Positions 11,611 to 35,166 of a stretch of 57,380 bases of DNA are shown piece after piece. Source of the stretch: a virus (taxonomy: Duplodnaviria; Caudoviricetes). The notes under the pieces were generated by a model. It was not told where the DNA came from and made no database searches. It saw nothing but the letters and a program-made list of their open reading frames with translations. The position numbers and the translations under genes were made by a program. Within the stretch, counting starts at the first letter, position 1; each line of letters starts with the position of its first letter. The stretch is taken from IMG/VR virus record IMGVR_UViG_3300032330_001137, positions 1-57,380 of that record. One strand, given 5' to 3'.

Positions 11611-11756
11611 CGTTCTCAGCCCTCGTTCTAATCGCCAGCCTTTTCGCCTCCCAGTGGGCGATCTTTGGGCTGGCCCGCGCCTTCCTCTACACGCCCGCCA
11701 TCGTCGCGGCAGCGGCTGCTCTGTGGCTCGTCGCCGCGCTCGCCGCCGCTCTGTGA
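11607..11756 (+). CDS. Small membrane protein (49 aa)
   Basis: ATGA overlap with the previous gene; MTFSALVLIASLFASQWAIFG...AAAALWLVAALAAAL; below the ORF-track cutoff. Confidence 0.6.
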   Translation: MTFSALVLIASLFASQWAIFGLARAFLYTPAIVAAAAALWLVAALAAAL

Positions 11757-11819
11757 ACCCCGAACCCCGAACCCTTAGTGCCCACGCACTAAGCGTTTCG
11801 GAGCTTTCTCAGAAAAGAA

Positions 11820-11847
11820 TTGACGGCACGCCGCCCGCCTGTAAAGT
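11820..11847 (+). promoter_or_regulatory. Putative promoter of the AAA gene
   Basis: TTGACG-16-TAAAGT; preceded by AGAAAAGAAT as is the 14021 promoter. Confidence 0.5.
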
Positions 11848-11894
11848 GGCGGCACGCTTGATTGAATAACAACTGAAACAGAAAGAACTAAAAG

Positions 11895-12956: not shown

Positions 12957-13042
12957 TCCACTGGCGGGCTTAGTGCGGATGCACTAAGCCCGCCTTCACT
13001 CGCCAAGATCTTCACTCTCCAGTAAAACAGAAAGAAAACATA

Positions 13043-13948: not shown

Positions 13949-14020
13949 TGCCCGCACCGCCGGAGGCTTAGTGCATCTGCACTAAGCCTCCGGCCTACCT
14001 TTCGAATAAGAGAAAAGAAT

Positions 14021-14049
14021 TTGACAAGCTCTCACATAGCCCGCATCCT
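14021..14049 (+). promoter_or_regulatory. Putative promoter of the vWA gene
   Basis: TTGACA-17-CATCCT; downstream sequence resembles that of the 10154 promoter. Confidence 0.5.
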
Positions 14050-14075
14050 GAATCCCGAACCCTGAATCCTGAAAC

Positions 14076-15575: not shown

Positions 15576-15638
15576 TATAAACCAACGGGGGGAGCGCATC
15601 CGATCACGCTCGCAAACTGAAACAACAACCAACTGGAT

Positions 15639-16055
15639 ATGAAATACAAACTGACAGGCGAATCGAAAGAGATCGACGGCGTGACACTTTACAGAATCGA
15701 AGCCCTTAGGGCCTTTGGAAATGTGAGCGTCGGACATATAGGCGGATGGGTAGAATCGGAAGCTAACCTGTCGCATGACGGCAATGCTTGGGTCTACGAC
15801 GATGCTCAGGTCTACGGCGATGCTAAGGTCTACGGCGATGCTAAGGTCTACGGCGATGCTAAGGTCTACGGCAATGCTTGGGTCTACGACGATGCTCAGG
15901 TCTACGGCGATGCTAAGGTCTACGGCGATGCTCGGGCCTACGACAATGCTAAGGTCTACGACAATGCTTGGGTCTACGGCAATGCTTGGGTCTACGGCAA
16001 TGCTAAGGTCTACGGCGATGCTTGGGTCTACGGCGAGATAGACTCACTTCAGTGA
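15639..16055 (+). CDS. Hexapeptide-repeat (left-handed beta-helix-like) protein, copy 1
   Basis: LYRIEAL..FGNV..G.IGGWVESEANLSH followed by (VYGDAK/VYGNAW)n, an 18-bp DNA repeat. Confidence 0.85.
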   Translation: MKYKLTGESKEIDGVTLYRIEALRAFGNVSVGHIGGWVESEANLSHDGNAWVYDDAQVYGDAKVYGDAKVYGDAKVYGNAWVYDDAQVYGDAKVYGDARAYDNAKVYDNAWVYGNAWVYGNAKVYGDAWVYGEIDSLQ

Positions 16056-16147: not shown

Positions 16148-16819
16148 ATGAAATACAAACTGACAGACGAATCGAAAGTGATTAACGGCGTGACGCTTTA
16201 CAGAATCGAGTCCCTAACGGCCTTTGGAAATGTGAGCGTCGGAGATATAGGCGGATGGGTAGAATCGGAAGCTAACCTATCGCATGACGGCAATGCTTGG
16301 GTCTACGACGATGCTCAGGTCTACGGCGATGCTAAGGTCTACGGCGATGCTCGGGCCTACGACAATGCTAAGGTCTACGGCAATGCTAAGGTCTACGGCA
16401 ATGCTTGGGTCTCCGGCAATGCTAAGGTCTACGGCAATGCTAAGGTCTATGGCAATGCTTGGGTCTGCGACAATGCTAAGGTCTACGGCAATGCTTGGGT
16501 CTGCGACAATGCTAAGGCCTACGACAATGCTTGGATATACGGAGATGCTCAGGTCTACGGCGATGCTGATGTCTTCGGAAATGCTGTGGTCTCCGGCAAT
16601 GCTCTGGCCTACGGCAATGCTCGGGTCTACGACAATGCTTGGGTCTCCGACAATGCTAAGGCCTACGACAATGCTTGGATATACGGAGATGCTCAGGTCT
16701 ACGGCAATGCTCTGGCCTACGACAATGCTCAGATCTACGGCAGTGCTCGGATCTCCGGCAGTGCTGAAGTCTCCGGCAATGCTAAGGTCAATGCTGTGGT
16801 CTGCGGCAATGCTGCCTGA
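16148..16819 (+). CDS. Hexapeptide-repeat protein, copy 2
   Basis: Near-identical N-terminus to copy 1 with a longer repeat tract. Confidence 0.85.
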   Translation: MKYKLTDESKVINGVTLYRIESLTAFGNVSVGDIGGWVESEANLSHDGNAWVYDDAQVYGDAKVYGDARAYDNAKVYGNAKVYGNAWVSGNAKVYGNAKVYGNAWVCDNAKVYGNAWVCDNAKAYDNAWIYGDAQVYGDADVFGNAVVSGNALAYGNARVYDNAWVSDNAKAYDNAWIYGDAQVYGNALAYDNAQIYGSARISGSAEVSGNAKVNAVVCGNAA

Positions 16820-17492: not shown

Positions 17493-17780
17493 ATGAAACA
17501 CGTAACACAAAAACTAATCGAAGTCGGCGGGCATCCCGTTGACGTGAAGGCACGGATCGAAAAGCACGGATGGGTGGTCATCACCTTCACTCCTGCATTC
17601 TCAATCCGCTCATCGAAACTGCATCTTCCTTTTGCGCGGGACGCATTCATCAACTCCATCATCTGCGGGCTGTTGGATAATGAATCGCCCGACTACGAGA
17701 AGAAGTTCGGTGAGGCATACGCTGAATTGAATGCGACCCTTGAGCTTGTCACCGGAAACTTCAATGCTGAGGAACCCTGA
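17493..17780 (+). CDS. Hypothetical protein
   Basis: 95-aa ORF in the operon. Confidence 0.6.
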   Translation: MKHVTQKLIEVGGHPVDVKARIEKHGWVVITFTPAFSIRSSKLHLPFARDAFINSIICGLLDNESPDYEKKFGEAYAELNATLELVTGNFNAEEP

Positions 17781-18135
17781 TTCCGGTAACCTGATCCTTG
17801 AAACAATAGCCCGCCGTGCAGGAGTCACGGCGGGCGTTCTTTTCGAGTCGCGTAACAAAGAGATAGCAGCATGGCGGAAGATCGCCATCTACCTGCTCCG
17901 TAAATCAGGACGCACGATGGCGGAAGTCGCAGCCATCGCATCACGCGATGCCTCAACGATCAGTCGTTTGATATCGGAGATCAACGAAGTGAAGAGAAGG
18001 AAGTGGTTCCAAGACTTATCTGATTCAATAGAAGAAGAATTGGATAAGCGGTCGATCTGCATTCGGGCCAATGAATTCTGCCAGCGCATACCGATGGAGG
18101 TATACGCTCAAGCATTTGCGTCGGCGGACGATTAA
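17764..18135 (+). CDS. DnaA C-terminal-like HTH protein
   Basis: SRNKEIAAWRKIAIYLLR...MAEVAAIASRDASTI resembles DnaA domain IV. Confidence 0.65.
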   Translation: MLRNPDSGNLILETIARRAGVTAGVLFESRNKEIAAWRKIAIYLLRKSGRTMAEVAAIASRDASTISRLISEINEVKRRKWFQDLSDSIEEELDKRSICIRANEFCQRIPMEVYAQAFASADD

Positions 18136-21100
18136 GGTTCGATCATTATGTAGCGGCTGTACTTCTTCAACTCGTCGTCGGCGATCAACAGTCGGTCCAT
18201 CCCCTGTTCGTTCGTAGGATCAGCGAGCCTACTTTGGAAGTCAGGCGAAAGCACGGGCCGATCCATTAGCTTGTTGAACAACAAGCGGGATCGGTCTTTG
18301 CCGTAGCCCATGTTCTTGCTCGTCATAATGCTGTAGATGTCTTGTGGCTTTAGGCCCAAGCCTTCATAGCCGCGCATCTTGCGGTAGATGTCTTCGTTCA
18401 TCGCGGCTTTGTCATAGACTTCAGACTTGATGATGTCGCGGACCGCAGCCTCATCGATTGGTTTCTTGCTGAACAGCACGTTCTTCCGTTCGTTGATGCG
18501 GTTGTAGACATCACGTGTCTCCGACAGATAGCGGCGGAGTTGCTTGTCCAGTTCGATATCATGTCGCTTAACAGGATAGAATTCCTGCATCAGGATTCCT
18601 GCTGGCGAATTGTCAAAATCTGTGTAGTCAGATCCGACAGCCTGATAAGCTTTGATGATGCGGTTCGCTGCGCTTGGCATATACGCTTGGCGGAACACGT
18701 GAGACATCGACTTGAGAACAACCGCTCCTGCTGAATCGATCTTCGGCTCATAGATCGGCTTGTCCGTGGACGGGTCACGGTTATCGCGCAGCGATTGGAT
18801 CGCGGACGAGAAGATCTGATCGTCGAGATACTGATCAAAGATCGCTGTCTCGACAAACTTAGCCGCCGCCTTTGCCGGATCTCCGCGAAGGAGATGCTCC
18901 ATTGAACGCATCGTCGGATCTGATACCAACGAATACGGATTGAGGAACGTGAAGTCCCACGATTGCAGCTGGCCGTTATCATCGCGGCGATAGAAGAACG
19001 TGTGGTTCCTTAAGTAAGATGGAAGCGAAGCGCGTAGTGCCTCATCCTCATCGTCTCCGATGCCGACCAATGCGCGGATCACGGCAGGCACAACCATCGA
19101 AACGCCGCCGATCACGAAGGTCATGCCTGCGAAACGCTTCTGTCCGCGTGCCGCGATCACGCTGTTGCCGCTCTTCATCTCGTCGAACGCGAGCTTGTAA
19201 GTATTGAGAACGATGCGCGGAACTTCCGCTTTGAATCGGAGGAACGGCGAGAACAGTAGGCCGATGCCAGACTTCGTGATCTCTTTGACGATTGGCGGTG
19301 CTTGGCTCGCCGACTGCGCCGTCATCAGGACTTTCCGCGCAGCTTCACGCTTCAGATCATAGTCGCTCATCGTCGCGAACTTACCGCCGCCCGCACCTCT
19401 CGCGCTGTTAAGCACTTTGAGTTCGTTCTCATAGTAGGCGATCTTGTAGAAGGCATCAGCGGCAGACGCTAGCTGCTGTGCCTTATCCGTCATCCATGTG
19501 AGTGGCTTCGTTCCCGCGTGCCCGATCTTGATCAGCTTGTCCAGCTGGCTTTCAATAGACTGGATCGTGGTAGTCCCGCGCAGGAGATCCGCCATAACAG
19601 TGGATTGGGTTTCATTTCCAATGACGCCCAACGATATGAGTTCGGTGCGATATGCTTCGATTCGATTCGGGTCAGTGAGCGAAGACCAGATCTCGTTGCG
19701 AGCGGACTCAGCCATCGATCCGATATTGAAGAATCCCTGAGAAGGACCGAAGAACGCCATGTTGCTGACGACGTTGCGGATGTAGAATCCAACTGATCCT
19801 AACGTCTTCGCAGCCATCGCTCCGCCTGTAAGCTTCGCAAACAGATTGGTTGTCTTTGCGACTAAGTCCTGAGCCGTGTCCATGTTCTGCTTACGCGCTT
19901 CAGAGGAGAACACTTTGTTCAGACCATCGACCAGTTCCGGTGGTCCGAAGAGATCGCCCAACGGATCGTAGGCTGATGCTTCTTTGTTCGACCGGATCAT
20001 GCCGTAGTTCTTATAGGTATCGTAGTCGGACACCATCTTGTCATCCAACTCTTTTCGGGTCAGCAACCATCCGCCTTCAACACCGATGGTCTTAACGTGT
20101 TGGAGGAAGGATTGATTAGCCGCCATCGACGAGACCGTTACGAACGAGCGAAGCAGGTTATCGGCTCCAGATTCGGGACCATACTCTCCCAAGATGTTGC
20201 GGAGTTCTACCGGAATATCTTTCTTCTGCTTAATGTTCTTCTGGAGGATGCGGAACGATTCCGACATCGTTGATCCCGCTGAACCGGAGAGACCCTTCTT
20301 CTCGTATTGCGAGATGAATTCCTCTAGCGCGTTCTCCGCAACAGACCGTCCGTTACTGGCTTTGTTTGCAAGATCGATACGGGCATTGTTCTCCGCGTCG
20401 GATTGGGTCTCGCCCGCAGCCATACGCCGTGCCGTCTCATGCTCCATGAACTGGTTCTCAAAGAACGTCATCGCCGCCTGACGCTGCGGCTCATATGATG
20501 GATCGCTCCGAACAATGTCAGCGAAGCCAACTTCGTGGAACATCTTATACGAGCGGGTTAAGTAGATGCCAAGTTGCGAATCGAATGTGGCTTGAAGCTC
20601 AGGCTTGAATCCATACAGAGAAGTAACGCGTTTAGATACTTCGTCGGTAAGCGTTCTGAGTTGAACAATGTGGCGTGCAAGTTCGGGTGATTTGTTCGCG
20701 AGATTTTCGAGCGCGGTATCCCGCAATGAGCGGATGGCGTCGGCTTGTGCCGTGCGTTCCACATCAATCGATTGCATTTTGGCATCGAGAGCAGTCCGGC
20801 GGGCCGCTGTCTTCTGCTTTGCGTTGAGCGTGTCATCGATGCTGATCGTCTCAAGTGCTGCCTGATACGTGTCTTCGATCTGATCGACGACATCCTGATT
20901 CAGGACCGTGCCGTGTGTAGATCCAATCGCTGCCGCGATGTCATCGAGCGGAGCATTCTCAAGCGAACCGAAGTCTTTCTTGATGATGCTGTCGAGCTTC
21001 GTCTTGTAGTTCTGAACGAGACTCGTCGCCGCGCTTTTGAAGAAGTCGCGGTGGTTCTTCAGAGTAGTAATGCGCGGATCGAGTTCTCCTTTGAACAAGC

Positions 21101-24100
21101 GATCAAGCACGTTCTTTGGCGAGCGATACGTTCCGACTTCAAGCATCGGCATCTCCAATGCCTGCAAGAAGTTGCTGAAGTCCATCTTGTCCGCGTCGAA
21201 GCGAGCGGGCAACTGCGAGACATCGCCGAAGGATGTTTGCAGGATGCTGTTACTCTTCTGGTTGAATCGTTGCGATAGAGGAATCACGTTTCCATTCTCA
21301 TCGCGGGTAATCGGATCTGCGGATTTAACTTTATTTGGGTCAAATATGGCAAAGCTAGTTATGTTTCCATCTCCTCTTTCACTTTCGTAGTAACCATCAA
21401 AACCAAGTTGTCGAATTAGATCTTGGGCACTACTATTTTCAAAAACGTCATAGTCAGCGGCTTGCAGTTCTGCGTCATCGATATACATCAATTTACGCAA
21501 CGCAGACCTGTGATCTTGCACTCGCGGGTCGAAGAGATTGTTACTGCCAAACACTCCCAAAATAATAGGTTCAGTTGATTCTGAATCCAACTGATCACCC
21601 TCTCGATCAACAATATGCCTAACATTTTTGGCTTGAGCTTCAGCAAAATCTTTTGCCATTTCTGGGCGAAGAGCAACATGCATTGCTACACCTCTATGTC
21701 CTCGGGGAATCGTGAATTTATATGCTGTTCCATGCCACCCTTTTATGGTGTACCCCGCAGCCTTCGCCGCTGCATCCACCATCTGCTGCATCTTTGCAGT
21801 GTCGCCAGCATCAACGGCTTTCAGATACTCAGCGTCTGACTGACGTGAGACATCGCCGAAGGATGTTTGCAGTGTGCCTGCATTAGGCATGGATTGCTTG
21901 TTGGATGCTGGAGGTATAGACTTAACGGCTGCCTGCTGCGCCGCCATTGCCTCATCATAGGTGGCATAAAGCGGAACTTGGTCGCGAATTGCATCGTAGC
22001 CTTCTGTCCCGATCTCTGGAAGACCTGACTTGCCAGTTGGGTCTTTGACCATTAGCACGACGTCTGGCTTGCCTGCTAGATCATAAGGCCAATTTGGAGG
22101 TGCGTAGTCTGAGTTAAATGCAATCCTCGCGACTGGGCGGAATCCAATTTTGGAATACAGGTTTGGAAGGAACCCGTTGACGTCATACGCATCCAGCGTT
22201 GTTGCGTAATTTGCCGCTTCTTTAAGAATTGGTAGTATCTTCTCCTTGCTCGATGGGTGCTTGAACACGCTGACAAGGTCACCATACGAAGTCACTGCAA
22301 CTCCAGTCAAGTCATCGGGGGCGAGGAAGAGTCTGGTTCCGCTGTCGTTGTAGAAGGAGGCATCTTTGACCTCAACTGCTGCACCCATTGGGTGGTCGGA
22401 TGCAGTTCTTCCAATTCCTTCAAGAAATTTTCGTCCGACATCAGGCTCATTCCTGATGCTGCGTTCATAAACGCTTGTTGCGGTGTTTTCTTTTTCGTTT
22501 CCATTTGGTAATGTTTTGAAATTTGTTTCTAGCGTGTCGCCGAAGGACGTTCCTACAGAGACATTAGTTTGTCCAGCAGCTGTTCCAACTGCGCGTCCGT
22601 CATCCCCTCCGCTATTTCGTGCGGCTCTATCGGTTCGGATGGACTCTGCGATTGAGAGAGCGTCGTCTCCGAGCCCTCGTTGTTTTGCGATGGTGATGAA
22701 TTCTTCGTCATAGGATGATTTGAGGTTACTCTCTGGCTTGCCCGTAAGCAGTGCCCAGAGATCTTTTTCGGGATACCAAAGGATAGCTTGGATGTCCGCA
22801 TTGGTTGTAGTGTAGCCTAGAGCTTTCAGTTGTAAACGACTATTGTTCACGATCTCTGTGATCACGCGTCGGTCTTGATCAGATGGTGCATCGATGGGGT
22901 TGAGCTTCGATTTGATAACGTTCGCTGCATTGGCCCACGCTGGCTTGATTGCAGAGACTTCTTTGTTGGTGAGGACGATATCCCTGCCTGCTTTGGCGAA
23001 CTTCAAGAGTCTCCAATCAGCAATCGGAATTTGTGGGAGCTTGTTGCTCTCAGCTAGCTTATCAAATTTGATTGGCAACTCGTTAAGTCGGGCATTGCGC
23101 TCCGCTTCTGAGAGTTTGTTTTTCCTAGCGTCTGCGTTGATGCTCTTCGTTTTGTTGCCAATCCATACTTCCCTGCTGATGGAAGGGAGTGACTTGCTGG
23201 TTGAGAGAATCTTATAGTCGGCGTTGATTTTCTCGATGAACGCGTCCGTCGATGCAATATACTTACCGATGGACAGTTCACCGGACAGCATGGCGTCATA
23301 CAACTTTTTGTTCAGCGGTAAGCTCAACAACTTGAATTGACGTTGCCATTCGGCATCGAGTTTAGTTGCCGTCTCATTGCATAGCTCTCTAAACTTGAAA
23401 TCATTTTCGAGTTTAGCGGCGGCAGTGTGATGCACTGTCATTTTAACCACGCCATCCTTTTCGATTAGCTTGCCTTTAGAGTTTAGCGCAGGTACGAACC
23501 TAATCTTTTTAAGTTCGTCTGGCAGGGCTACCTTTGCGGCCTTTGCCCCGAGAATAAGATTGGTGAGTCTTTCTTCGGTGACTCCATCTCCCACTACGTC
23601 GCCAGTCCAGCGACCCCATGTGCGGCGCATCCATAGATCGACAGTGACAGGAGTGAAGTTTGACATCAGGTTCTGCAAAAAGCCCTGTCCGATCTTTGGT
23701 CCGAAGATTGCGGCTCCGTTCACTTTGTCTTTTTTCGCTCCGGTGACAGATACTTTCTTGCCACGGATATCGCTCGCGATTGTCGATAGATCTTTAATGG
23801 TAAATTCTTTCTTAACAAAATCTTCCGATTTGGCGTAGCCATATTTTGCAACTAGCAAGTTTGCCAGATTGAGGTTGCTCTTAATGGCGTCCGCTTTTGA
23901 TCCGTAGCTTCTCGTATTGTCGAACTTACCGTTAAGCTTTAACAATGTGAACTGTTCTTCAGCGTATCTAGTATTCTGTTCTACGTTGATATTCTGCGAC
24001 GTGATCGCCAACGCCATTCGCATTGCAAATCTTGCAGCTTGAACAGGATCTTCCGAAGCTGCAAAGGCAGGAACTGCTCTTGCCGCATCGACATTGGATA

Positions 24101-27100
24101 GCTCAGGGTGGAGGACGGAAGCGACACCCATCGCAACTTCGATGGCAGTGGAATACCAATCAGCTGCGTTCTTTCCGCTGGCATTCAATGCGGCGATGAC
24201 TTCTTCGGTGCAGTTCTGAGTCAGGATTGCCTTTTGTTCTGGCGTAATGTTCTTGCTGGTAACAAGACCACCCCAATACTCTGCTGCCATCTCCGCCAGT
24301 TGATTAGCTACGACTTTGTTGGTAGCCTTTGTCGGGGACATCGCGGCTCCGTGTAGAAGATTGAGAGCCGACATCGGGAACGAAGAGCGGGTAAGCTCTG
24401 CTTCGACATCGCCGAACGATGTTCCTAACTGATTTTCAAACATTCCAACTACGTCGGACGGATTCTCTGGATTGAAACGCATCGCGTTCGGAGCCAGTCG
24501 ATAGCCTGCTTGGAGCGCACGCATCTCTGTGACGATACGGGCGACGGCCACACGTTCGTCGGTAGACATTGCAAGAAATGTTTTTCCACGAACGAACGAT
24601 GCAACATTGTTATTGATGTTGGTAGTGCCGCCGAACATGGAGTTGATCATGTTCTTGAAGTAGCGTCCAAGAATCTTTAACGTGCTTGGGTTGGTTCTCC
24701 AGAAGGCATAGTCCTCTTCGGTCGTAGTTCCGCGAGTCACTTTCTGTGAGAGCATCCGCAACCGTTCTTCGGTAAGACGGAGTTTCTCTGCTCCAGAAAC
24801 ATTAGGATCTTCACTACGAAGTCTTTCGAGAGCAGCCGCACGGTTAGCTTCGTTGCCGTAGTATGCGTTGGCAATCTCTTCAAAGTCCGAATCCTTTTTG
24901 GAATCCACGATGGTAGCAACCTCAGATTCCGTAAGCGAGTTGAACGATGCGACGTGGCGCATTTCTTCGTCAATCATCGTTTTGATGGCAAGACTCGCTT
25001 GCGACGGAGTCTTACCGTTGATAAGTGCGGCGATGCTCTGCGGGTTGACAAACAGCTCTCCCGTCTGGAGATCGACTTCCGCCATCGGGACAGTGCTATC
25101 CCATTGGAGTTTAATTTCTTTAGGGACCAGCTTGCGGATGAGCAACATCGAACGCTTCATCGAAGCGACCATCGAGCGGTTCGTGTCGGTCGTTGGATCG
25201 AAGGGGAGAGTTTTAGGATCTGCTTGATCCATCAAGTCAGAGACTTCCGCTTCGTCAGCGGCTTTCACTGCGGCTGCTTTGGCTTCAGCGGCGGCAGATT
25301 CTTCATCGACAGATATTGTCCCATCGCCCGCAACCGATCCGAACGAACTGCCGACCCGCTTCGCGATGCCGAGTATCTCGCTCGACTTCACAGCGAGCTT
25401 GTTGATCAGACTGCGGGAAGTAAGCGGAGCGGAGTGGATAGCCGAACGTGTGAGATCGACCACATCCGTGAACGCTTGTTGGTAAACGGACTGAGTCGAT
25501 TTGCCCAACCCGAACACATCGAGAAGTGCATCGATAACGCGAGCAAAGAACCCACGTTGTTTAGCTGGAGGCGAGAGCGTCTTAACCAGATTCTGGAAGT
25601 CGGTTGACGTAAAGAAGTGAGTAACAAATTCGTTAAGATCAACCAGACCATCCGTCAGCATCGGTGAGTCGATACCGTTTGAGGCAGCGGAATCACGAAC
25701 CAGATTCAGGATTCCGTTCAGGCGTTGAATGGCGGCACGTTGATCTTCCGTTTGGAGTTCGACCGGAGCCGATATGACTTTGTTCACGAACGCGTGCAGG
25801 TATTCATGCAGCAGTGCATCAGATAACCCTCTGCCGTTGTAGCCATCCAAGTTCAACGATACCGCTGAAGTGCCATCTGCCATCAGCGTATACTGACCAG
25901 CGTATGGCAAGCTGACTTCGTCGATTGAGAACGTGACTTGCCGGATGAACGATTGGTTCTCAAGCAGGAGTCTAGCCAGAAGTTTCTTGTTCGGGTCAGC
26001 TTCAGTTGAAGCGATGATCCTAAGCGCGTTGATGACCGACTGCGGGTCTCCGTTCTTAAGACCCAAGCGTGCGACATCAGCTTCGTTAAGATTGCGTGCG
26101 AATTCAATCTGTTCTCCGCGCACGTAAGAGCGCGACCACAGACGTGTAGCGACATTGCCGATTGACTTGGCAAATTCTTTTGCTTGCCGTTCGGTAACCT
26201 TTACCCCACTGCCAGACGAAAGGTTTCTGGCGAGTTCTTTGATATACTCAGGATCTTGGTCGATGCTGCCTGTGACCGATTTAGATGCGATATGCATCAG
26301 CTTCAACGCATCACGAAGAGCCATGCCGTTCTCGTAGTCACCGTTCTCTAAGCCTCTTTGGAATCCGATAGCTTCAGGATTGGTAGCGTAATTTCCGGCA
26401 GACATCCACTGAGCCAGTTGGCTGAATGCGTCTTGGGCGGTCAAGCCGCTGACATCAAACGCGCTGTTGCCTTTATACAAAGTGCTACGCAACAGTTTAT
26501 TCAATGCTGTCCTCAGTTCAGGATCGCTATCGATTGAATCAACAGCATCAGCCGCAGTCCGCTCCATCAATCCTTTGGTAAGTTGCGACGTCGGGCTGAA
26601 AAGATCTTTGTCTGGAGCGATGTGGTCATCAGATACTTCCGACATCGGATCGTATGCTTCATCAGCTTGGAGCTTTGCCACATCTTCCGGTGACGTAGTC
26701 TGGAATATAGCTCTGCGTGCGAATAAGTTTCTGCTCCGTTGTTGTTCGGCATACATGTTTCCAACTTTTGCTCCGACAGAACGAAACGTCGGAGCGACTT
26801 CTGGAGCAGTGAGGATATGATCTTCGATGAAGTTGGCGATAACGAGATCAGGATTAGACTCAGGATTGATGTCGCTTCCATAGGTTTGCTGAAGCCTTTT
26901 CGCTACGGAAACTTTTTGGTTAGCTCCTTCTGGTCTGGTGAGTCCAACGAATTGATCGATTGCCGCGTTAACTTTATCTGGCTTAAGCGATGGGAATGCT
27001 TCTCCAGAAACACGTTCGGAGAATTTATCGAACGACAGACGCATGGAATGAAGCCGCAGCGCACGGCGATATGCTAGATCGAAGGCTATAGATGCGGTCT

Positions 27101-30100
27101 CTGCGAAATCATCAGTAAGGTTTCCGACTTTCGGTTTGATAGCATTGTCGATGATCGCTTTGGCTGCTGGCTGGCTAAGTTTACCAGCAGATCCTATCCC
27201 AACCGATTTGTTTCGGATGTTAGTAACTCTGGTAAATACTTCATTGAGGGTTACTTTGACATTCGCATTCTCAGGATCGGGGATTACTTGCTCGCCCGCT
27301 ATTTTGTTGTTGAACAAGTTTTCGAAGTCACTGACTTTCTGAATGAAATCATAGTTTGGCTCTTCGCTCAACACGGTATCCTGACGCGTCAGCGCAGACA
27401 CGAATCCCGATCCGGTTTCGGGATTGACTTTAACGATGTCCGTAAGAGTATGTTCATTTCCGAGTTTACTGTAGCGGAACGAAGGATTGATGGTGCTGAG
27501 ATCGAAGTCTTCTGGAATGATGACTGGATGATTATTCTCCAGCAGTGCCTTCATCGTGAGCGGATTGTTATCGAACACGCCGACTCCATTCTCGTTGATG
27601 TAACCTTTAGGCTGAGCGCGACTTACTGTATTTGATTTTGGATTGAATACGGTTGTCTTACTTCCAGATACGGGAGTCCAGTTTTTCTGGACACTCAACT
27701 CAATCGGCTTGTAGATCTGAGCGATCTTCTTGTTGATCAGATCCGACTTGCCGCTCAGATATCCCTTATCGTAACTAGCACGCTTCGGATAGCCGTACAG
27801 TTCCTTTGCTTGGAGGCGAACGGGAAAGCCGAATCCGATCAGGCGTTGGAGCGTGGAGATCTCTTGTCCAGTAAGTTCATCATCCACGAATGTCTCTTCG
27901 TCGAATGTCTCTGGAACTTCAACACCAACAGGAGCGGCTGGCTTCTTAGCTTTAGTTGGCTTCTTAGCTACAACTTCTTTCGGATTTTTGCCAGCGACGA
28001 TTGCTTGAGCAGCAGCGGCTACGGGAATCGGAATGGACGTAACAACGGCCTCAGCATCTGCTTCGGCGGCATCTTCAAACTTGTCTGAGGAACCAGCGTG
28101 ATTGCTTTGCTCTTCGATATCGGCTTCTGGGGGGAAGAGATCAAGCTGTTCGGCAAGCGAAGTCTTAGTCTGTTGTTTAACACTACGCCTAACACGCGGG
28201 ACTTTCACTGGTGGCGCACCGCCGACCGATAGCTGAAGTTCAAGCTGCCCCATTGGAGCTTCGCTTGCTTGTTTGAGAGCAGCATTTTTTGCTTCGATTT
28301 GTTGGACGACCGGACTAGCTCCTCCTTTGGCCGCTGTCTTGCGCTTCTTTTTCGCCGCCGGATTTGGAATGGAGTCGATATCCATTCCGATTTCAGGAGC
28401 TTTATTGGGGTCAGTGGCGATGGCGGCAGCGACAGATTCTTGCGACGTATTGGCGTGCAGTGCGGCAGAGATCTTCTCCACAGCTGCAATCGTCTGAGGC
28501 ATCTTCGGCCTTTGCTTTGCAATCGCTTCTTGGTTGTTGGTCAGGTCGAGTTGTTCGATGGCAGTTTCATATTCGATGCCTTCATCATCGACATAGCTGA
28601 TCATTCTGTTTTCAGGATCGTATCCAGTTACTTTAAGCTTGTCGCCAAATCGGTCCATAAGTTCTCCGGCAGACGTGATGTCCTTCGTGAGAAGTTCATG
28701 CATCACATCGAAATCGTTGGGAGCCTTATACTCCGGTTCGGTTTCAACGGATGCGGGAGCAGGGGTTGGGGTTGCGGCAGGCGCAGCAGGCGCAGCCACA
28801 GTTGCAGGCGCAGCAGGCGCAGCAGGCGCAGCCACAGTTGCAGGCGCAGCAGGCGCAGCAGGCGCAGGCTGTGTGGCTCGCGATGCCTGCAGCACGGCTT
28901 CAGCTGCCTTTGCGCGGGTGCGGCGCGGGGCTGACAGGATTCCGTACACGGTTTCAGCAGTCAGCGGGCTACCGCTCGCTTCTAGCGAAGAGCTGACTTT
29001 CTTGGCGAAGTCAAGCTCGATTGCCGCTTGACGTTGACGCGCACTTTGTTTGAACAACGGAGCAGCTGCTGCCCGAATGGCCGGAACGCCAGAACCCATT
29101 ACACCTCCGAGAATTGCCGCACGACCCGCTTGCTCTAACCGTTGGAGGAACGGAGTGTCTTGATCCGTAGCCGCGTCTGTGATGAACCCGTTGACAAACT
29201 CATCGGTGAATTCTTCCGCGCCTTCATCGATGAATCCTTTGCCTGCATCTTTTGCTAGCGTGCTTCCGTAGTTTTTAAGGATGCCCGATACTTCTTTGGC
29301 GACAACTTTGTTAAATACGTCGTCACTGATATCGCTGACATTCGCGATACGGGCCATAACAGATTTAAGTTCACTTCTGGTAGCTCCACTTAGGAGAGCG
29401 TCCTCAAGACCGCCGTGACCGAACGCTGCGAATCCAGCGGTAAGTGCCGCAGTGACAGCACCAGCCGCGAAACCAGCTCCCAACGCACGGTCATGCCGTT
29501 CTTCTGGCGTGATGTCCTTATTGTTTTCGAGCTGAGAATAGACGTTCGCATAAGTAGCTCCGGCGGAACGGTTGAATGCTGGGATCGCCGACGCCACTGT
29601 GGTTCCGAGTGTCTTGGCTAGCCGTCCACTATAGCCGTTGATCACAGCCATTGCGCCGCTCTTGCCTGCTTCGCCCACCGACTCTTTAACCAGTCCGCTT
29701 ACGATTAGACGCTCTGCCGCTTGTTCTACGCTCTCCGTAGCCAACTTGCGGAATGCTCCGCTTGCCATCCCTTTCACCAACCCTTTAACAGTAATGCGTG
29801 CGCCGCTTTTTGCTGCGGCGTATGCAACACCACCAGCTCCTGCAGCGGGAGCCGTGCCTATTGCCAGCAACGTAGTTGCCGCCATGTCGATCAGCATAGG
29901 AGCGATTGTCTCAGCTAGATCTTGGCCCATGCCGTATTCTTTACCGAATAGGCGAGCTACTTCGCGGCGGTTTTGCTTCTCTTTGATATTGCCGATCATG
30001 TAGTTCCGCGCCCAATCCGCGCCCATCATTGCTGGAACGGCGGCGACAAGCTCGCCGAAGCCATCGAGAATGGATTCCTTGATGCCTCCCGCACGGCTCG

Positions 30101-31376
30101 AAAGCTCGCTAAAGTTGGAGGGGGTTGAGACAAACTGCTCAAGCGTGTCCGTATCTTTTTGTCCGTTGGCGCGTCCTTTTTGCAGTGCGTTCAGCCAATC
30201 GCTAGAGATAGTAGAATCGGTTAGCAACTTGTTGTATCCCTCAAAGGAATTGGCAACCGCGATTTCACGCTGCGCCTTAAGTGTTGTCCGTTGATCCTCC
30301 GATAGTTCAGGATGCTCAGCCAATGCTTGTTCGAACAACGGCTTATTTGTCATCAACGCAGGATGAACAATAGGCGTAGCGTAACCAACATTGCGAATGT
30401 TGCGCCCAATCTCTTTGGGATCATCGTAGAATTTGAATTTATTTTGGTCGTTCGCGGACATGTAGGCAAGTTGAGTAATTGCTTTGTCAACTTCATCGTC
30501 GGTGAACGTATGTCCCGCTGTAAGGTTCTCATTCAAAGTGCGGCGCACCGCAGCGATATCAGGTTTCTGGCCTTCTAATACTTCTCTGTTATCAGCGTCC
30601 GCCTTCGAAAGAGTCGTGCCGTAAGAGTCGAGGATCTGGGCTGTCTTTTCATCGTTCTTCGCCAGTTCCGAAATCATGCCCGCAGCTTCGTTGTAGCGGG
30701 ATGTTTTGTAGAGCGGGGTCTTATATCCAACGGGAGTGCTTACCAACGCCTGAACATTGAGAGAGTCCGAGAAGTTAACGCCGCCCGTTTTGCTGGAGCG
30801 GATAGCTTCAGGGAGATTCATCGAGTCCATCATCGGTCCAGCAATGATCTCCTGCTTTCCTTCATCATCCATCACTTTGGCGAGCGGCATTTCTCCGTTA
30901 CGCACTTTGATGCGTTTCGCGGTATCGAAACCTTTCTCCACCGCTTGTTCCGCTTCTTGCTTATATTGATCGCGGGATGCGACAAGATCGGGAGCGAGCG
31001 CGTCGGGATCGGGATGGATCGATTGGAACGTCAGATAACGATTGACTGCCTTCCATGCGGGATCTTCCGAATCCAGAGTGGATCTGATCATCGCATACTT
31101 AGTCTCAGTAGATGGCTCCTTTGCCGTGAATAGTGCCTCTACATCTTCTTGCTTAGTTGGATCAATCAAGCCAGCTTCGGCTGCTTGGTCCCGCGTGGCA
31201 TTGCGGATCTCTCGCTCGATAGAGCTGTTATAAGATCCAGCTTTTAGGTATTCTCCACGAACATAATCCGCGTAGGACTTTCTGTTCTCGATTGAATCTC
31301 CTGCGTCATTCTGTGGTTCCCAATCTTTGAAGGATGAAAAGTCGGGCGATTGTAGTAGTTTTTCAAGCTCTGACAT
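18132..31376 (-). CDS. Giant (4414 aa) polyvalent internal virion/ejection protein
   Basis: Gly/Ala-rich hydrophobic N-terminal segments; HEYLH and EEMRH zincin-like motifs; HhH-GPD-like, GNAT-like and ART-like (GWHGT...GFDG...IFDPNKVKS) modules. Confidence 0.85.
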   Translation of the reverse strand: MSELEKLLQSPDFSSFKDWEPQNDAGDSIENRKSYADYVRGEYLKAGSYNSSIEREIRNATRDQAAEAGLIDPTKQEDVEALFTAKEPSTETKYAMIRSTLDSEDPAWKAVNRYLTFQSIHPDPDALAPDLVASRDQYKQEAEQAVEKGFDTAKRIKVRNGEMPLAKVMDDEGKQEIIAGPMMDSMNLPEAIRSSKTGGVNFSDSLNVQALVSTPVGYKTPLYKTSRYNEAAGMISELAKNDEKTAQILDSYGTTLSKADADNREVLEGQKPDIAAVRRTLNENLTAGHTFTDDEVDKAITQLAYMSANDQNKFKFYDDPKEIGRNIRNVGYATPIVHPALMTNKPLFEQALAEHPELSEDQRTTLKAQREIAVANSFEGYNKLLTDSTISSDWLNALQKGRANGQKDTDTLEQFVSTPSNFSELSSRAGGIKESILDGFGELVAAVPAMMGADWARNYMIGNIKEKQNRREVARLFGKEYGMGQDLAETIAPMLIDMAATTLLAIGTAPAAGAGGVAYAAAKSGARITVKGLVKGMASGAFRKLATESVEQAAERLIVSGLVKESVGEAGKSGAMAVINGYSGRLAKTLGTTVASAIPAFNRSAGATYANVYSQLENNKDITPEERHDRALGAGFAAGAVTAALTAGFAAFGHGGLEDALLSGATRSELKSVMARIANVSDISDDVFNKVVAKEVSGILKNYGSTLAKDAGKGFIDEGAEEFTDEFVNGFITDAATDQDTPFLQRLEQAGRAAILGGVMGSGVPAIRAAAAPLFKQSARQRQAAIELDFAKKVSSSLEASGSPLTAETVYGILSAPRRTRAKAAEAVLQASRATQPAPAAPAAPATVAAPAAPAAPATVAAPAAPAATPTPAPASVETEPEYKAPNDFDVMHELLTKDITSAGELMDRFGDKLKVTGYDPENRMISYVDDEGIEYETAIEQLDLTNNQEAIAKQRPKMPQTIAAVEKISAALHANTSQESVAAAIATDPNKAPEIGMDIDSIPNPAAKKKRKTAAKGGASPVVQQIEAKNAALKQASEAPMGQLELQLSVGGAPPVKVPRVRRSVKQQTKTSLAEQLDLFPPEADIEEQSNHAGSSDKFEDAAEADAEAVVTSIPIPVAAAAQAIVAGKNPKEVVAKKPTKAKKPAAPVGVEVPETFDEETFVDDELTGQEISTLQRLIGFGFPVRLQAKELYGYPKRASYDKGYLSGKSDLINKKIAQIYKPIELSVQKNWTPVSGSKTTVFNPKSNTVSRAQPKGYINENGVGVFDNNPLTMKALLENNHPVIIPEDFDLSTINPSFRYSKLGNEHTLTDIVKVNPETGSGFVSALTRQDTVLSEEPNYDFIQKVSDFENLFNNKIAGEQVIPDPENANVKVTLNEVFTRVTNIRNKSVGIGSAGKLSQPAAKAIIDNAIKPKVGNLTDDFAETASIAFDLAYRRALRLHSMRLSFDKFSERVSGEAFPSLKPDKVNAAIDQFVGLTRPEGANQKVSVAKRLQQTYGSDINPESNPDLVIANFIEDHILTAPEVAPTFRSVGAKVGNMYAEQQRSRNLFARRAIFQTTSPEDVAKLQADEAYDPMSEVSDDHIAPDKDLFSPTSQLTKGLMERTAADAVDSIDSDPELRTALNKLLRSTLYKGNSAFDVSGLTAQDAFSQLAQWMSAGNYATNPEAIGFQRGLENGDYENGMALRDALKLMHIASKSVTGSIDQDPEYIKELARNLSSGSGVKVTERQAKEFAKSIGNVATRLWSRSYVRGEQIEFARNLNEADVARLGLKNGDPQSVINALRIIASTEADPNKKLLARLLLENQSFIRQVTFSIDEVSLPYAGQYTLMADGTSAVSLNLDGYNGRGLSDALLHEYLHAFVNKVISAPVELQTEDQRAAIQRLNGILNLVRDSAASNGIDSPMLTDGLVDLNEFVTHFFTSTDFQNLVKTLSPPAKQRGFFARVIDALLDVFGLGKSTQSVYQQAFTDVVDLTRSAIHSAPLTSRSLINKLAVKSSEILGIAKRVGSSFGSVAGDGTISVDEESAAAEAKAAAVKAADEAEVSDLMDQADPKTLPFDPTTDTNRSMVASMKRSMLLIRKLVPKEIKLQWDSTVPMAEVDLQTGELFVNPQSIAALINGKTPSQASLAIKTMIDEEMRHVASFNSLTESEVATIVDSKKDSDFEEIANAYYGNEANRAAALERLRSEDPNVSGAEKLRLTEERLRMLSQKVTRGTTTEEDYAFWRTNPSTLKILGRYFKNMINSMFGGTTNINNNVASFVRGKTFLAMSTDERVAVARIVTEMRALQAGYRLAPNAMRFNPENPSDVVGMFENQLGTSFGDVEAELTRSSFPMSALNLLHGAAMSPTKATNKVVANQLAEMAAEYWGGLVTSKNITPEQKAILTQNCTEEVIAALNASGKNAADWYSTAIEVAMGVASVLHPELSNVDAARAVPAFAASEDPVQAARFAMRMALAITSQNINVEQNTRYAEEQFTLLKLNGKFDNTRSYGSKADAIKSNLNLANLLVAKYGYAKSEDFVKKEFTIKDLSTIASDIRGKKVSVTGAKKDKVNGAAIFGPKIGQGFLQNLMSNFTPVTVDLWMRRTWGRWTGDVVGDGVTEERLTNLILGAKAAKVALPDELKKIRFVPALNSKGKLIEKDGVVKMTVHHTAAAKLENDFKFRELCNETATKLDAEWQRQFKLLSLPLNKKLYDAMLSGELSIGKYIASTDAFIEKINADYKILSTSKSLPSISREVWIGNKTKSINADARKNKLSEAERNARLNELPIKFDKLAESNKLPQIPIADWRLLKFAKAGRDIVLTNKEVSAIKPAWANAANVIKSKLNPIDAPSDQDRRVITEIVNNSRLQLKALGYTTTNADIQAILWYPEKDLWALLTGKPESNLKSSYDEEFITIAKQRGLGDDALSIAESIRTDRAARNSGGDDGRAVGTAAGQTNVSVGTSFGDTLETNFKTLPNGNEKENTATSVYERSIRNEPDVGRKFLEGIGRTASDHPMGAAVEVKDASFYNDSGTRLFLAPDDLTGVAVTSYGDLVSVFKHPSSKEKILPILKEAANYATTLDAYDVNGFLPNLYSKIGFRPVARIAFNSDYAPPNWPYDLAGKPDVVLMVKDPTGKSGLPEIGTEGYDAIRDQVPLYATYDEAMAAQQAAVKSIPPASNKQSMPNAGTLQTSFGDVSRQSDAEYLKAVDAGDTAKMQQMVDAAAKAAGYTIKGWHGTAYKFTIPRGHRGVAMHVALRPEMAKDFAEAQAKNVRHIVDREGDQLDSESTEPIILGVFGSNNLFDPRVQDHRSALRKLMYIDDAELQAADYDVFENSSAQDLIRQLGFDGYYESERGDGNITSFAIFDPNKVKSADPITRDENGNVIPLSQRFNQKSNSILQTSFGDVSQLPARFDADKMDFSNFLQALEMPMLEVGTYRSPKNVLDRLFKGELDPRITTLKNHRDFFKSAATSLVQNYKTKLDSIIKKDFGSLENAPLDDIAAAIGSTHGTVLNQDVVDQIEDTYQAALETISIDDTLNAKQKTAARRTALDAKMQSIDVERTAQADAIRSLRDTALENLANKSPELARHIVQLRTLTDEVSKRVTSLYGFKPELQATFDSQLGIYLTRSYKMFHEVGFADIVRSDPSYEPQRQAAMTFFENQFMEHETARRMAAGETQSDAENNARIDLANKASNGRSVAENALEEFISQYEKKGLSGSAGSTMSESFRILQKNIKQKKDIPVELRNILGEYGPESGADNLLRSFVTVSSMAANQSFLQHVKTIGVEGGWLLTRKELDDKMVSDYDTYKNYGMIRSNKEASAYDPLGDLFGPPELVDGLNKVFSSEARKQNMDTAQDLVAKTTNLFAKLTGGAMAAKTLGSVGFYIRNVVSNMAFFGPSQGFFNIGSMAESARNEIWSSLTDPNRIEAYRTELISLGVIGNETQSTVMADLLRGTTTIQSIESQLDKLIKIGHAGTKPLTWMTDKAQQLASAADAFYKIAYYENELKVLNSARGAGGGKFATMSDYDLKREAARKVLMTAQSASQAPPIVKEITKSGIGLLFSPFLRFKAEVPRIVLNTYKLAFDEMKSGNSVIAARGQKRFAGMTFVIGGVSMVVPAVIRALVGIGDDEDEALRASLPSYLRNHTFFYRRDDNGQLQSWDFTFLNPYSLVSDPTMRSMEHLLRGDPAKAAAKFVETAIFDQYLDDQIFSSAIQSLRDNRDPSTDKPIYEPKIDSAGAVVLKSMSHVFRQAYMPSAANRIIKAYQAVGSDYTDFDNSPAGILMQEFYPVKRHDIELDKQLRRYLSETRDVYNRINERKNVLFSKKPIDEAAVRDIIKSEVYDKAAMNEDIYRKMRGYEGLGLKPQDIYSIMTSKNMGYGKDRSRLLFNKLMDRPVLSPDFQSRLADPTNEQGMDRLLIADDELKKYSRYIMIEP
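21217..21872. repeat. 26-bp exact direct repeats flanking the ART-like module
   Basis: GAGACATCGCCGAAGGATGTTTGCAG at 21217-21242 and 21847-21872 (630-bp period, in frame). Confidence 0.95.
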
Positions 31377-35113: not shown

Positions 35114-35166
35114 TATTTGTTTTTTTTGTTGCAAGTGATTACAATGTGTTCAAATCTGAATCCATC

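Follow-up and report, generated by a model that had tools for sequence, protein, structure and literature searches.

What does a short peptide do when it recurs at the module junctions of a giant phage protein: is it a handle for recombination, a signal, or a cleavage site? The window analyzed here, a 57,380-nucleotide stretch of DNA from an uncultured freshwater phage, contains a single 4414-aa ORF whose modules are joined by the short conserved peptide TSFGD. The gene is on the strand of terminase and downstream of it, with neighbors encoding terminase large subunit, DNA polymerase, helicase, primase, exonuclease, tail fibre and amidase, and its 46 related loci are in viral contigs. The combination of several unrelated domains in one chain and the phage encoding are those of the polyvalent proteins of phages and conjugative elements described by Iyer, Burroughs, Anand, de Souza and Aravind in 2017 (PMC5512222). 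A Pfam scan of the whole protein returned no family at E≤0.1, and no Pfam polyvalent-protein model reached threshold on it. The ORF and the junction sites, located with the pattern [TS]SFG, are as follows.

18132..31376, minus strand: giant ORF, polyvalent-type phage protein, 4414 aa, with collinear full-length relatives P0003-P0013
25338..25349, minus strand: degenerate junction motif VG-SSFG-SV, aa 2010-2013 (VGTSFGAV or VGTAFGAV in close relatives)
24408..24422 (TSFG 24411-24422), minus strand: junction motif TSFGD (LGTSFGDV), aa 2319-2323, fixed boundary before the 624-aa module
22536..22550 (TSFG 22539-22550), minus strand: junction motif TSFGD (VGTSFGDT), aa 2943-2947, left edge of the variable cassette slot
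21852..21866 (TSFG 21855-21866), minus strand: junction motif TSFGD (LQTSFGDV), aa 3171-3175, within the 26-nt repeat copy at 21847-21872
21222..21236 (TSFG 21225-21236), minus strand: junction motif TSFGD (LQTSFGDV), aa 3381-3385, within the 26-nt repeat copy at 21217-21242

Pattern scanning of the ORF placed these copies within a few bases of the coordinates given in the initial annotation. TSFGD occurs four times in the 4414-aa protein, versus 0.003 expected from composition, and SSFGS once. The tripeptide SFG occurs five times versus 0.80 expected, all five at junction sites. Five window boundaries carry the motif, the same motif standing at each boundary as in a processed polyprotein. T[SQ]FG[DA] was absent from all other ORFs of the window, with only loose SSFG, TSFG or IGTSY matches in six short or antisense frames. 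Thus, there is no sign of capsid or scaffold proteins being cut at TSFGD.

Overall, the protein comprises a chassis and one hypervariable slot. The chassis consists of an N-terminal 2000 aa with a putative zincin-like HEYLH domain, an EExxH domain, a 624-aa module and a 1034-aa C-terminal body; the slot of the window protein holds two cassettes.

25794..25808, minus strand: HEYLH, aa 1857-1861, putative zincin metal site in a strand-strand-strand-helix domain (motif scan and model)
24423..25349, minus strand: module aa 2010-2318 with invariant EExxH (EEMRH 24954-24968; relatives' alignment and model)
22551..24422, minus strand: conserved 624-aa module (relatives in 46 loci)
21867..22550, minus strand: cassette 1, 228 aa, labeled 'GNAT-like', phrog_2563
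21237..21866, minus strand: cassette 2, 210 aa, ART-PolyVal-type ADP-ribosyltransferase, tail ...NVIPLSQRFNQKSNSILQ, GC3 0.386
18135..21236, minus strand: conserved C-terminal body, 1034 aa, start (TSFGD)VSQLPARFDADK (relatives' alignment)

The domain labels of the initial annotation fared unevenly. ART-PolyVal (PF18760) scored 15.7 bits against cassette 2 (E 0.026), under the 31.2-bit gathering cut-off. BLAST aligned this cassette with 59 segments of other giant proteins at E≤1e-8, many with precomputed PF18760 annotation, and cassette and homologs have the common tail NVIPLS[EQ]RF. PARP12 and exotoxin A domain III matched weakly in fold (E 0.29-0.7). Collectively, these comparisons support homology of cassette 2 to the ART-PolyVal family despite the sub-threshold Pfam score, and the ART label stands. 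The GNAT label of cassette 1 gained no such backing: Pfam matched neither the module nor any of 11 aligned members, no PDB profile matched, and language-model neighbors that included some GNAT clusters scored 0.79-0.82, below the tool's 0.9 lead level. The HhH-GPD-like label of the 624-aa module found no support. The zincin-like label of the EEMRH interval corresponds to a strand-strand-strand-helix layout resembling the HEYLH domain in a medium-confidence model, which is no proof. In relatives, four further cassette families occupy the same slot; LPD1, LPD5, DNA_methylase and GH-E occur in homologs at a greater distance. Eleven of 46 loci have an ORF that terminates where the 624-aa module does; in eight of these, which have an ...IRGY tail, it stops ~25 residues before the motif's place in the window.

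Comparison of relatives revealed cassette exchange from motif to motif. After a shared '...QTNVSVGTSFG', P0003 continues directly into the C-terminal body, P0004 and P0005 carry one ART, and P0006 and P0007 carry unrelated modules of 182 and 137 aa, respectively; the slot modules of P0004-P0007 each terminate in xxTSFGD-VSQLP. Across the relatives' proteins the slot shows eight architectures built from six cassette families. Alignment of P0001 with P0003 or P0012 gave one 438-aa indel running from TSFGD to TSFGD, the relative lacking all residues between the two copies. At the DNA level, most flanking 150-nt windows of loci L001 and L004 show 93-99% identity; homology breaks off after GTAGGTACATCCTTCGG (the codons for VGTSFG) and is restored at the following motif copy. 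An independent metagenome contig (run X2, 13.9 kb) falls from ~99% to <85% identity to the window at 22556, a motif edge; it has 37 differences over 19500-22556, is diverged through the 624-aa module and has seven differences over 24346-25600, thus carrying a diverged allele of that module between near-identical flanks. In run X3, junction stretches match the window (21751-21918) and the cassette cores of the contigs do not, and a 9-nt deletion variant at the 21852..21866 junction still reads GTSFGD. Both relatives and contig breakpoints therefore bear out the proposal that in-frame gain, loss and replacement begin and end at TSFGD. The expectation that ortholog indels would fall at the motif held in the cassette slot, as with the 438-aa indel, but not in the N-terminal half, where two indels (48 and 67 aa) lie away from any motif. 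At the level of sequence, these comparisons show that TSFGD delimits modules and that relatives swap cassettes motif-to-motif.

Repeat comparison confirmed that the two LQTSFGDVS copies form an exact 26-nt direct repeat (21217-21242 and 21847-21872), spaced 630 nt apart and in frame. The match stretches to 31 nt at 94%, and a 15-nt core is present in four copies in the window at 93-100% identity; window motif copies show synonymous differences at T, S and D. GC3 was 0.386 in the ART interval, 0.478 in the 'GNAT-like' interval, 0.51-0.55 in other upstream parts and 0.655 in the C-terminal body. Parts of the modules had been described as AT-richer than the flanks, which is partly borne out by the low GC3 of the ART and 'GNAT-like' intervals.

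Other lineages use other peptides. The sister clade displays TQFGA at equivalent junctions, and the position of aa 2319-2323 is occupied elsewhere by RFALDV, QFMPAE, TTRARRS or VTRKQK. [RK]FALD is present in 10 copies in P0025 and nine in P0047, both flanks of the 624-aa module included. In P0047, an ART (1025-1165) lies between motif copies at 983 and 1191, and a C5 methylase (1218-1516) between copies at 1191 and 1569. The L025 lineage uses QL[SR]SPVKR, DIRYS is a further dialect, and P0011 and P0027 have hybrid DIRY/TQFGA junctions. The motif is also present at fixed boundaries, flanking the 624-aa module on both sides in at least five dialects. More generally, a 5-mer in at least three spaced copies was found in 33 of 164 giant proteins versus one of 164 shuffled proteins. 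Some copies in P0008, L019 and P0013 have decayed to TQLG, TQLT or SQLT, the alignment shows no motif at the aa 2010 boundary of the TQFGA clade, and the 3125-aa protein of the cultured Limnohabitans phage DC33, which has the 624-aa module, contains no non-low-complexity 4-mer in three or more copies. In two AlphaFold models, all four modeled motif copies fell in segments with pLDDT <50, although the alignments were shallow (8 and 26 rows) and low pLDDT may not mean disorder; VG-SSFG-SV (aa 2010) falls in the low-pLDDT segment 323-387 of its model. A literature search found no comparable junction motifs in print.

Codon usage among copies separates peptide from DNA. Nine RFALDV copies in L030 use two to three codons at each of six positions, three ATQFGA copies in L005 differ at the third positions of all six codons, and TLSVG copies in L028 likewise encode the same residues with different codons; copies were chosen by peptide, so the lack of amino-acid change is partly built in, and what can be relied on is the difference in DNA between copies. 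In some lineages, motif copies have no usable DNA identity. As judged from these codons, junction residues are kept by selection on the protein and not merely by DNA identity. Residues kept while codons drift indicate that the peptide has a function at the protein level and is more than a DNA recombination handle.

A candidate reader of the peptide resides in the protein itself. Model pLDDT is ~80-87 around HEYLH, and VIA-align paired the domain with 8vb2_A (Z 7.4, rmsd 5.2, 148 aligned) and anthrax lethal factor 1yqy_A (Z 7.0, rmsd 12.4, 180 aligned), Z values of 7.0-7.4 being in the tool's middling range, and further with 3dl1_A (Z 5.8) and PPEP-2 (Z 5.4). Foldseek returned no match to the domain model at E≤0.001, and no Pfam peptidase family was found on the giant protein. 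Matches to podophage internal virion or ejectosome proteins were weak (9sfn_G, E 0.35; 8vb2_A, Z 7.4); like the gene's place downstream of terminase, they are no more than hints that the protein may be packaged and travel with the DNA. The E and second H of HEYLH are invariant in eight of eight aligned relatives; L025 has E in place of the first H. Of 164 giant proteins, 128 contain HExxH, versus 4.9 expected in total. The models hint at a zincin-like domain that may be a peptidase, an assignment we regard as putative. The L025 lineage has EEYTH instead of HEYxH and retains its own junction motif; either the site tolerates Glu or another enzyme reads the motif.

We propose that the giant ORF encodes a phage polyvalent protein in which TSFGD is a probable cleavage site, perhaps read by the built-in HEYLH domain, that also bounds exchangeable cassettes; we give this reading an even chance of being correct. 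TSFGD would be the window lineage's version of a junction peptide located in a flexible linker before each module, and would be both recognized and cut, much like the sites of viral polyproteins. The HEYLH domain would be the likeliest enzyme, and cutting, whether inside the capsid or once the protein has been injected, would yield chassis pieces and cassettes as separate proteins. Since no cassette could work if it lacked the peptide, the codons for the peptide would double as short in-frame homology where recombinants survive, which would explain both the breakpoints and the 26-nt repeat.

It appears very improbable that the repeat matters only as DNA microhomology for swap, deletion or duplication, with the peptide a merely tolerated linker. 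The exact repeat flanking the ART cassette, the near-identical 15-nt core, DNA breakpoints at the motif, an ART GC3 suggestive of import, the hybrid junctions and the window-like junctions of run X3 around unlike cassette cores would all be accommodated. However, copies in L005, L003, L028 and L030 encode the same peptide with most third positions different, leaving identical runs of a few bases that are too short for homologous exchange, and the motif also stands at boundaries invariant in the set, where all that a direct repeat could bring is a risk of losing a conserved module. Another reading is a peptide signal that does not serve cleavage; peptide conservation and linker position fit any short linear motif. 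TSFGD would then be a docking or handling motif (capsid loading, chaperone, or an unfolding start or pause at tail ejection) and the chain would stay whole, as with the N4 virion RNA polymerase, packaged unprocessed, and ArdC and TraC1, all with MPTase domains, which travel unprocessed according to Iyer et al. 2017 (PMC5512222); the EEYTH lineage, with a motif and no canonical HExxH, is also in keeping with such a role.

We nonetheless consider a non-cleavage signal unlikely. A conserved capsid or portal reader is not expected to fit the wholesale change from TSFGD to TQFGA, QLxSPVKR or VTRKQK within one zincin family. Uniformity inside a protein with differences between lineages is typical of protease/site pairs, and one copy per boundary is what module release needs but not obviously what loading needs. 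Cleavage by a different protease, with HEYLH serving as effector or structural element, is a rather improbable alternative. Retention of the motif through the change of HEYLH to EEYTH is compatible with a head-maturation protease or host enzyme, and the window encodes a separate DUF2201-type putative metallopeptidase (14076-15575). Yet every other plausible window protein lacks the motif, no head protease was recognized among 25 neighboring ORFs scanned, and dialects change with the giant protein's own zincin variants, a descriptive association confounded by descent.

We advance a broader proposition tentatively, at somewhat less than even confidence: giant polyvalent proteins of DNA phages would be true polyproteins, each lineage having a private cleavage code and its own zincin-like protease, and a module with the peptide on both sides would be a plug-in cassette freed on delivery. 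The 5-8-residue peptides TSFGD, TQFGA, RFALDV, DIRYS, QLxSPVKR and VTRKQK would each have their own protease, and hybrid DIRY/TQFGA junctions would be scars of import across codes. Coevolution of protease and code would make cassette pools partly private to a lineage and would provide a natural orthogonal set of protease/site pairs. The junction peptide would also explain how phages reshuffle modules in frame. Splitting at a lineage's repeated peptide offers a parsing rule for giant phage proteins, thousands of which lack annotation, and would bring to light numerous new candidate anti-defense enzymes.

Uniform, virus-specific cleavage motifs are a property of viral polyproteins, such as the potyvirus NIa and picornavirus 3C sites. 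The window protein resembles these in having one short motif per boundary, uniform in the protein and lineage-specific, with a candidate protease in cis. It differs in being a DNA phage protein for which cleavage is proposed here, and its modules are exchangeable accessory enzymes, whereas theirs form a fixed replication set. MARTX toxins exchange effector domains by recombination and release them with a built-in cysteine protease that cuts inter-domain linkers. Likewise, the window protein has a modular effector region between conserved flanks, a repertoire that varies among close relatives and a built-in protease proposed for release. It is not a MARTX toxin, as no cysteine protease domain or MARTX repeats were detected by Pfam in the whole protein (0 families at E≤0.1); its carrier is a phage and not a secreted toxin, and a strict peptide of 5-8 residues marks its junctions. 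Polymorphic toxins have demarcation motifs, VENN in CdiA and PxxxxDPxGL in Rhs, and similarly place a short conserved peptide where a conserved part gives way to a variable, exchangeable part. Theirs is one demarcation before one C-terminal toxin, whereas the phage peptide occurs 4-10 times per protein, invariant boundaries included. T4 internal proteins carry a capsid-targeting sequence removed by the head protease and are capsid-delivered effectors processed at a short motif, as may be the case here; they are separate small genes sharing their motif with capsid and scaffold, whereas the window motif is confined to the giant protein. In composition the window protein resembles polyvalent proteins: it strings together unrelated enzyme domains, has an ART-PolyVal-type cassette and a putative HExxH zincin-like domain, and belongs with relatives in which LPD, DNA methylase, GH-E and further polyvalent-protein domains are found. 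Processing of polyvalent proteins by zincin-like metallopeptidases was already predicted by Iyer et al. 2017, in whose main text the word 'linker' does not occur and which, in the passages considered here, names neither cut sites nor a conserved junction peptide (PMC5512222). Window junctions are distinguished by a defined peptide with lineage dialects onto which cassette exchange maps, and this peptide offers residue-level candidate sites for the predicted processing.

The 4414-aa polyvalent-type phage protein encoded at 18132-31376 (minus) carries [TS]SFG at residues 2010, 2319, 2943, 3171 and 3381. TSFGD itself occurs four times versus 0.003 expected from composition, and the five SFG tripeptides of the protein (0.80 expected) all lie at [TS]SFG sites. 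The copies reading LQTSFGDVS lie within the two identical 26-nt units of an in-frame direct repeat (21217-21242 and 21847-21872; spacing 630 nt) that brackets a 210-residue ART interval. Motif counts and the exact repeat thus confirm the motif copies and in-frame repeats described in the initial annotation, a model's reading of the sequence alone, the coordinates of which were correct to a few bases. Within the window, T[SQ]FG[DA] was found to be confined to the giant ORF, so nothing suggests head-protease cutting of capsid or scaffold there; the motif as a head protease's site on those proteins was rejected. Loose SSFG, TSFG or IGTSY matches outside the giant ORF were confined to six short or antisense frames. 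The giant gene also contains a 36-nt tandem repeat of three copies (28765-28882) encoding an Ala/Pro-rich linker (aa 838-868). The database version of the protein (P0002, 3555 aa) begins just within this repeat; relatives are collinear from residue 1, and the 4414-aa reading is therefore better.

The junction peptide TSFGD is real and under selection, and conservation extends to the peptide itself, not to DNA alone. Window copies differ synonymously (ACA/ACG, TCG/TCC, GAT/GAC). Among related loci, the three ATQFGA copies of L005 vary at the third base of each of their six codons, the three TLSVG copies of L028 show three different codons for each of S, V and G, and the nine RFALDV copies of L030 use 2-3 codons at every position. 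Copies were chosen by peptide, so the lack of amino-acid change in these counts is in part a product of that choice. A non-low-complexity 5-mer with at least three spaced copies was present in 33 of 164 giant proteins (117 database proteins, that of the window and 46 locus ORFs) versus 1 of 164 shuffled sequences. Lineages speak dialects, each with its own junction peptide at equivalent module boundaries. Sister clade junctions read [LI][AG]TQFGA at the same positions, and more distant forms are as follows.

Junction dialects of giant homologous proteins (P) and a related locus (L)
[TI]RFALDV[DE]: P0025, ten copies; P0047, nine copies
EPTTRAR[KR]S: P0048, six copies
ETVTRKQK: P0057, four copies
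GLQFMPAE: P0041
QL[SR]SPVKR: L025, both sides of its 228-aa cassette homolog

The local motif lies on both flanks of the 624-aa module in the TSFGD, TQFGA, RFALDV, TTRAR and VTRKQK lineages, and these boundaries are invariant in the set. Pfam domains of P0047 fall between copies, with ART at 1025-1165 (copies at 983 and 1191) and a DNA methylase at 1218-1516 (1191 and 1569). A single register aligning TSF, IRY, IRF and TQF fits a constant distance to the ART N-terminal helix; it was set aside because the hybrid DIRY-TQFGA shows that a tandem arrangement is also possible, and no residue-by-residue homology is therefore claimed for the dialects. Limnohabitans phage DC33 was rejected as a cultured motif-bearing model, as no non-low-complexity 4-mer occurs at least three times in its 3125-aa protein. 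The searches revealed no cultured phage whose giant protein carries TSFGD.

Residues 1990-3420, used as a query, retrieved 117 giant homologs, 2.4-6.7 thousand residues long, the closest of which are collinear with the window protein except at a single slot that separates the 624-aa module from the C-terminal body. In P0003, '...VSVGTSFGD' is joined directly to 'VSQLPSRFDADK...' with no cassette. P0004 and P0005 have one ART cassette each in the slot, P0006 an unrelated 182-aa module, P0007 an unrelated 137-aa module and the window protein a 228-aa module plus ART; in every case the cassette ends in xxTSFGD, then VSQLP. Clustering of inter-motif segments yielded six cassette families, and eight architectures were counted among the proteins listed. 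The multiple alignment shows one 438-residue indel between the window protein and each of P0003 and P0012, running from TSFGD(2943) to just before TSFGD(3381). DNA comparison of loci L001 and L004 revealed 93-99% identity in most 150-nt windows on either side of the slot, falling to 72-82% within the 624-aa module. Their homology stops right after GTAGGTACATCCTTCGG (VGTSFG) and returns where these 17 bases next occur. The proposal that in-frame module gain or loss starts and ends at TSFGD therefore holds in the variable slot, where relatives with absent or replaced cassettes were found, but not for a 67-aa insertion (P0003, residue 862) and a 48-aa difference (residue 910), both in the N-terminal half and away from any motif copy. 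Modules are bounded by TSFGD, and cassette exchange takes place between copies of the motif.

Contigs from public sequencing runs X2-X4 were also compared with the window, a scale at which rare variants and true depths are not readable; window parts lacking contig cover (e.g. 22968-23375) were left out of interpretation. A 13.9-kb contig of run X2, from a study other than that of the possible source run X1, had 37 differences over 19500-22556 and 7 over 24346-25600, and was mostly <85% identical across the 624-aa module. Its first identity switch is on the VG codons of VGTSFGD and its second about 65 nt from the LGTSFGD copy. Some run X3 contigs match the C-terminal body and junction stretch 21751-21918, then diverge from the window, and others match the ART core (21433-21780) and 228-aa cassette core (21880-22523). 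One X3 variant has a 9-nt deletion at 21864-21872 that converts AGTLQTSFGD to AGTSFGD and keeps the motif core. The deletion drops an LQ that looks like the junction at the ART tail, bringing back the form GTSFGD found at other copies.

ART homology reaches the tail NVIPLS[EQ]RFxxxxx[DS]I in 53 proteins, followed by the local junction, and x-[YFW] directly follows the tail in 68 of 79 cases. Judged by sequence, the cassette behaves as a portable unit. It ends NSILQ-TSFGD in the window and PDIRY-TQFGA in P0011 and P0027, where a foreign junction remnant lies beside the resident junction. Because the DIRY remnant adjoins resident TQFGA, these hybrids point to import of the cassette across lineages, which also fits its GC3 of 0.386 versus 0.655 for the adjacent C-terminal body. 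Mixed alignments A1 and A2 placed ART homologs on the other cassette and were dropped in favor of A3. The ART label of the initial annotation is supported by 59 BLAST-related segments, weak PARP/exotoxin A fold matches and a sub-threshold Pfam match, the only one obtained with the whole giant protein and seven pieces. Its GNAT-like label for the 228-aa cassette was not confirmed by Pfam, PDB profile or language-model searches, nor was HhH-GPD-like for the 624-aa module by Pfam or PDB profile searches. The zincin-like (EEMRH) label has as its basis the topology of one medium-confidence model. Homologs of the 228-aa cassette (window 21867-22550) occur in P0124 and P0125, 781-799-aa proteins on 40-43-kb contigs with PF06074 in their precomputed Pfam column. 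In other phages, then, the cassette is apparently joined to another carrier protein.

The motif sits in linker sequence. In 11 of the 46 related loci (L006, L008, L011-L015, L017, L023, L024 and L029), the giant ORF does not extend beyond the 624-aa module. Eight of these 11 ORFs have the tail ...IRGY, aligning about 25 residues before the window's motif, and the intervening window residues are Gly/Ala/Thr-rich (RAARNSGGDDGRAVGTAAGQTNVSVG). The examined flanks of the 11 loci yielded no homolog of the C-terminal body; the chassis is therefore assembled differently in other lineages. Two AlphaFold2 models (mean pLDDT 60.6 and 59.4; alignments of 26 and 8 rows) placed all four modelled motif copies in segments with pLDDT <50 (residues 1-27 and 225-301 of one model, 323-387 and 640-681 of the other), low confidence from shallow alignments not being proof of disorder. 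The conserved stretch after residue 3385 likewise had low pLDDT. Foldseek of both models against the PDB gave no match at E<=0.001, VIA-align of the ART and C-terminal model gave generic helical matches only, and PDB profile searches with the HEYLH region, 228-aa cassette, 624-aa module, C-terminal body and N-terminal 1100 aa gave none below E 0.2.

A putative protease resides in the same protein. HExxH is present in 128 of 164 giant proteins versus 4.9 expected in total, and in the better-predicted model part (pLDDT about 80-87) the HEYLH of the window is situated on a helix preceded by three strands. VIA-align matches, with Z <8 being middling by the tool's own scale, were as follows.

Structural matches of the HEYLH domain
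8vb2_A, PhiM1 ejectosome protein: Z 7.4, rmsd 5.2, 148 aligned
1yqy_A, anthrax lethal factor: Z 7.0, rmsd 12.4, 180 aligned
3dl1_A, putative metal-dependent hydrolase: Z 5.8
6fpc_A and 9g0j_A, Pro-Pro endopeptidases: Z 5.4 and 4.9

Foldseek and Pfam returned no match for the domain, and the PhiM1 ejectosome paper contains no occurrence of peptidase, protease or HExxH. A zincin-like fold is plausible from the model, though not established. A further domain, in which EExxH is invariant, comes after the HEYLH-type domain in 42 of the 43 family members, and the two (window second domain, 24423-25349) might represent a zincin and a pseudo-zincin in tandem. The first site, too, has the EExxH form (EEYTH) in L025 and P0018-P0020.

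The window covers most or all of the genome of a freshwater phage. PHROGs matches were obtained for 8 of 25 neighbouring ORFs scanned, six with a functional name.

Features around the giant gene
33326-35134, minus: terminase large subunit (PHROGs)
Neighbouring ORFs: DNA helicase, exonuclease, DNA polymerase, primase, tail fibre (PHROGs)
Neighbouring ORF: amidase (Pfam)
11895-12956, plus: MoxR-like ATPase (phrog_1297), inside GC-rich island
Within 10000-16000, plus: 301-aa ORF, inside GC-rich island
14076-15575, plus: DUF2201_N putative metallopeptidase plus VWA-like protein, inside GC-rich island
16148-16819, plus: 223-aa protein, YdcK beta-solenoid, bactofilin and hexapeptide-type repeats (Pfam)
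17731-18135, plus: 134-aa ORF, DnaA C-terminal helix-turn-helix match (E 3.9e-8)

The GC-rich island (10000-16000; GC 0.59-0.65 versus about 0.50 elsewhere in the window), with its genes on the plus strand, may be a recently acquired module. The 223-aa protein has strong matches to PHROG families of unknown function, and the 134-aa ORF is convergent with the giant gene, overlapping its stop by 4 nt.

By analogy with viral polyproteins, the most likely reading is TSFGD as a recognition and cleavage site, in which case the giant protein would work as a polyprotein. Were the motif a recombination handle only, breakpoints at its copies would also be expected; copies in relatives such as L005, L028 and L030 share too little DNA for recombination, so a pure DNA handle cannot explain them. 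With a required peptide, every viable cassette would have to carry it, its codons would give short in-frame homology, and recombinants joined elsewhere would be lost, leaving the observed breakpoints and 26-nt repeat. Recombination would then be a consequence of these codons and not the primary function of the motif.

A signal other than cleavage would share the peptide conservation, and it is the likeness to polyprotein sites that favors cleavage. The identity of the enzyme is a separate matter. Within this zincin family, each site variant is paired with a dialect (HEY[LT]H occurs with T[SQ]FG, EEYTH with SPVKR, HEGLH with VTRKQK), a descriptive association confounded by descent. Against HEYLH as reader of the motif, the EEYTH lineage keeps a junction motif without the canonical first histidine. 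When the HEYLH domain (aa 1749-1979, 8-row alignment) was modelled together with a 40-aa junction peptide, the complex received a score of 0.02 and a mark of 0.32, which weighs on neither side. The motif might instead be cut by another protease, for which the DUF2201_N putative metallopeptidase (14076-15575) is an alternative candidate.

Functionally, the giant protein belongs with the polyvalent proteins of Iyer et al. 2017 (PMC5512222), passages of which predict that zincin-like MPTases process such proteins; the word 'linker' is absent from its text and those passages name no junction motif. Polyvalent ARTs are treated in a 2022 survey by the same group (PMC9503650), with junctions unmentioned in the corresponding passages. 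A literature search, to which most subscription journals and supplements were closed, returned no description of the motif strings or of cleavage or linker motifs in polyvalent proteins. The pattern seen here resembles that of viral polyprotein sites, with one motif throughout a protein, specific to the lineage, found at each boundary and situated in a linker.
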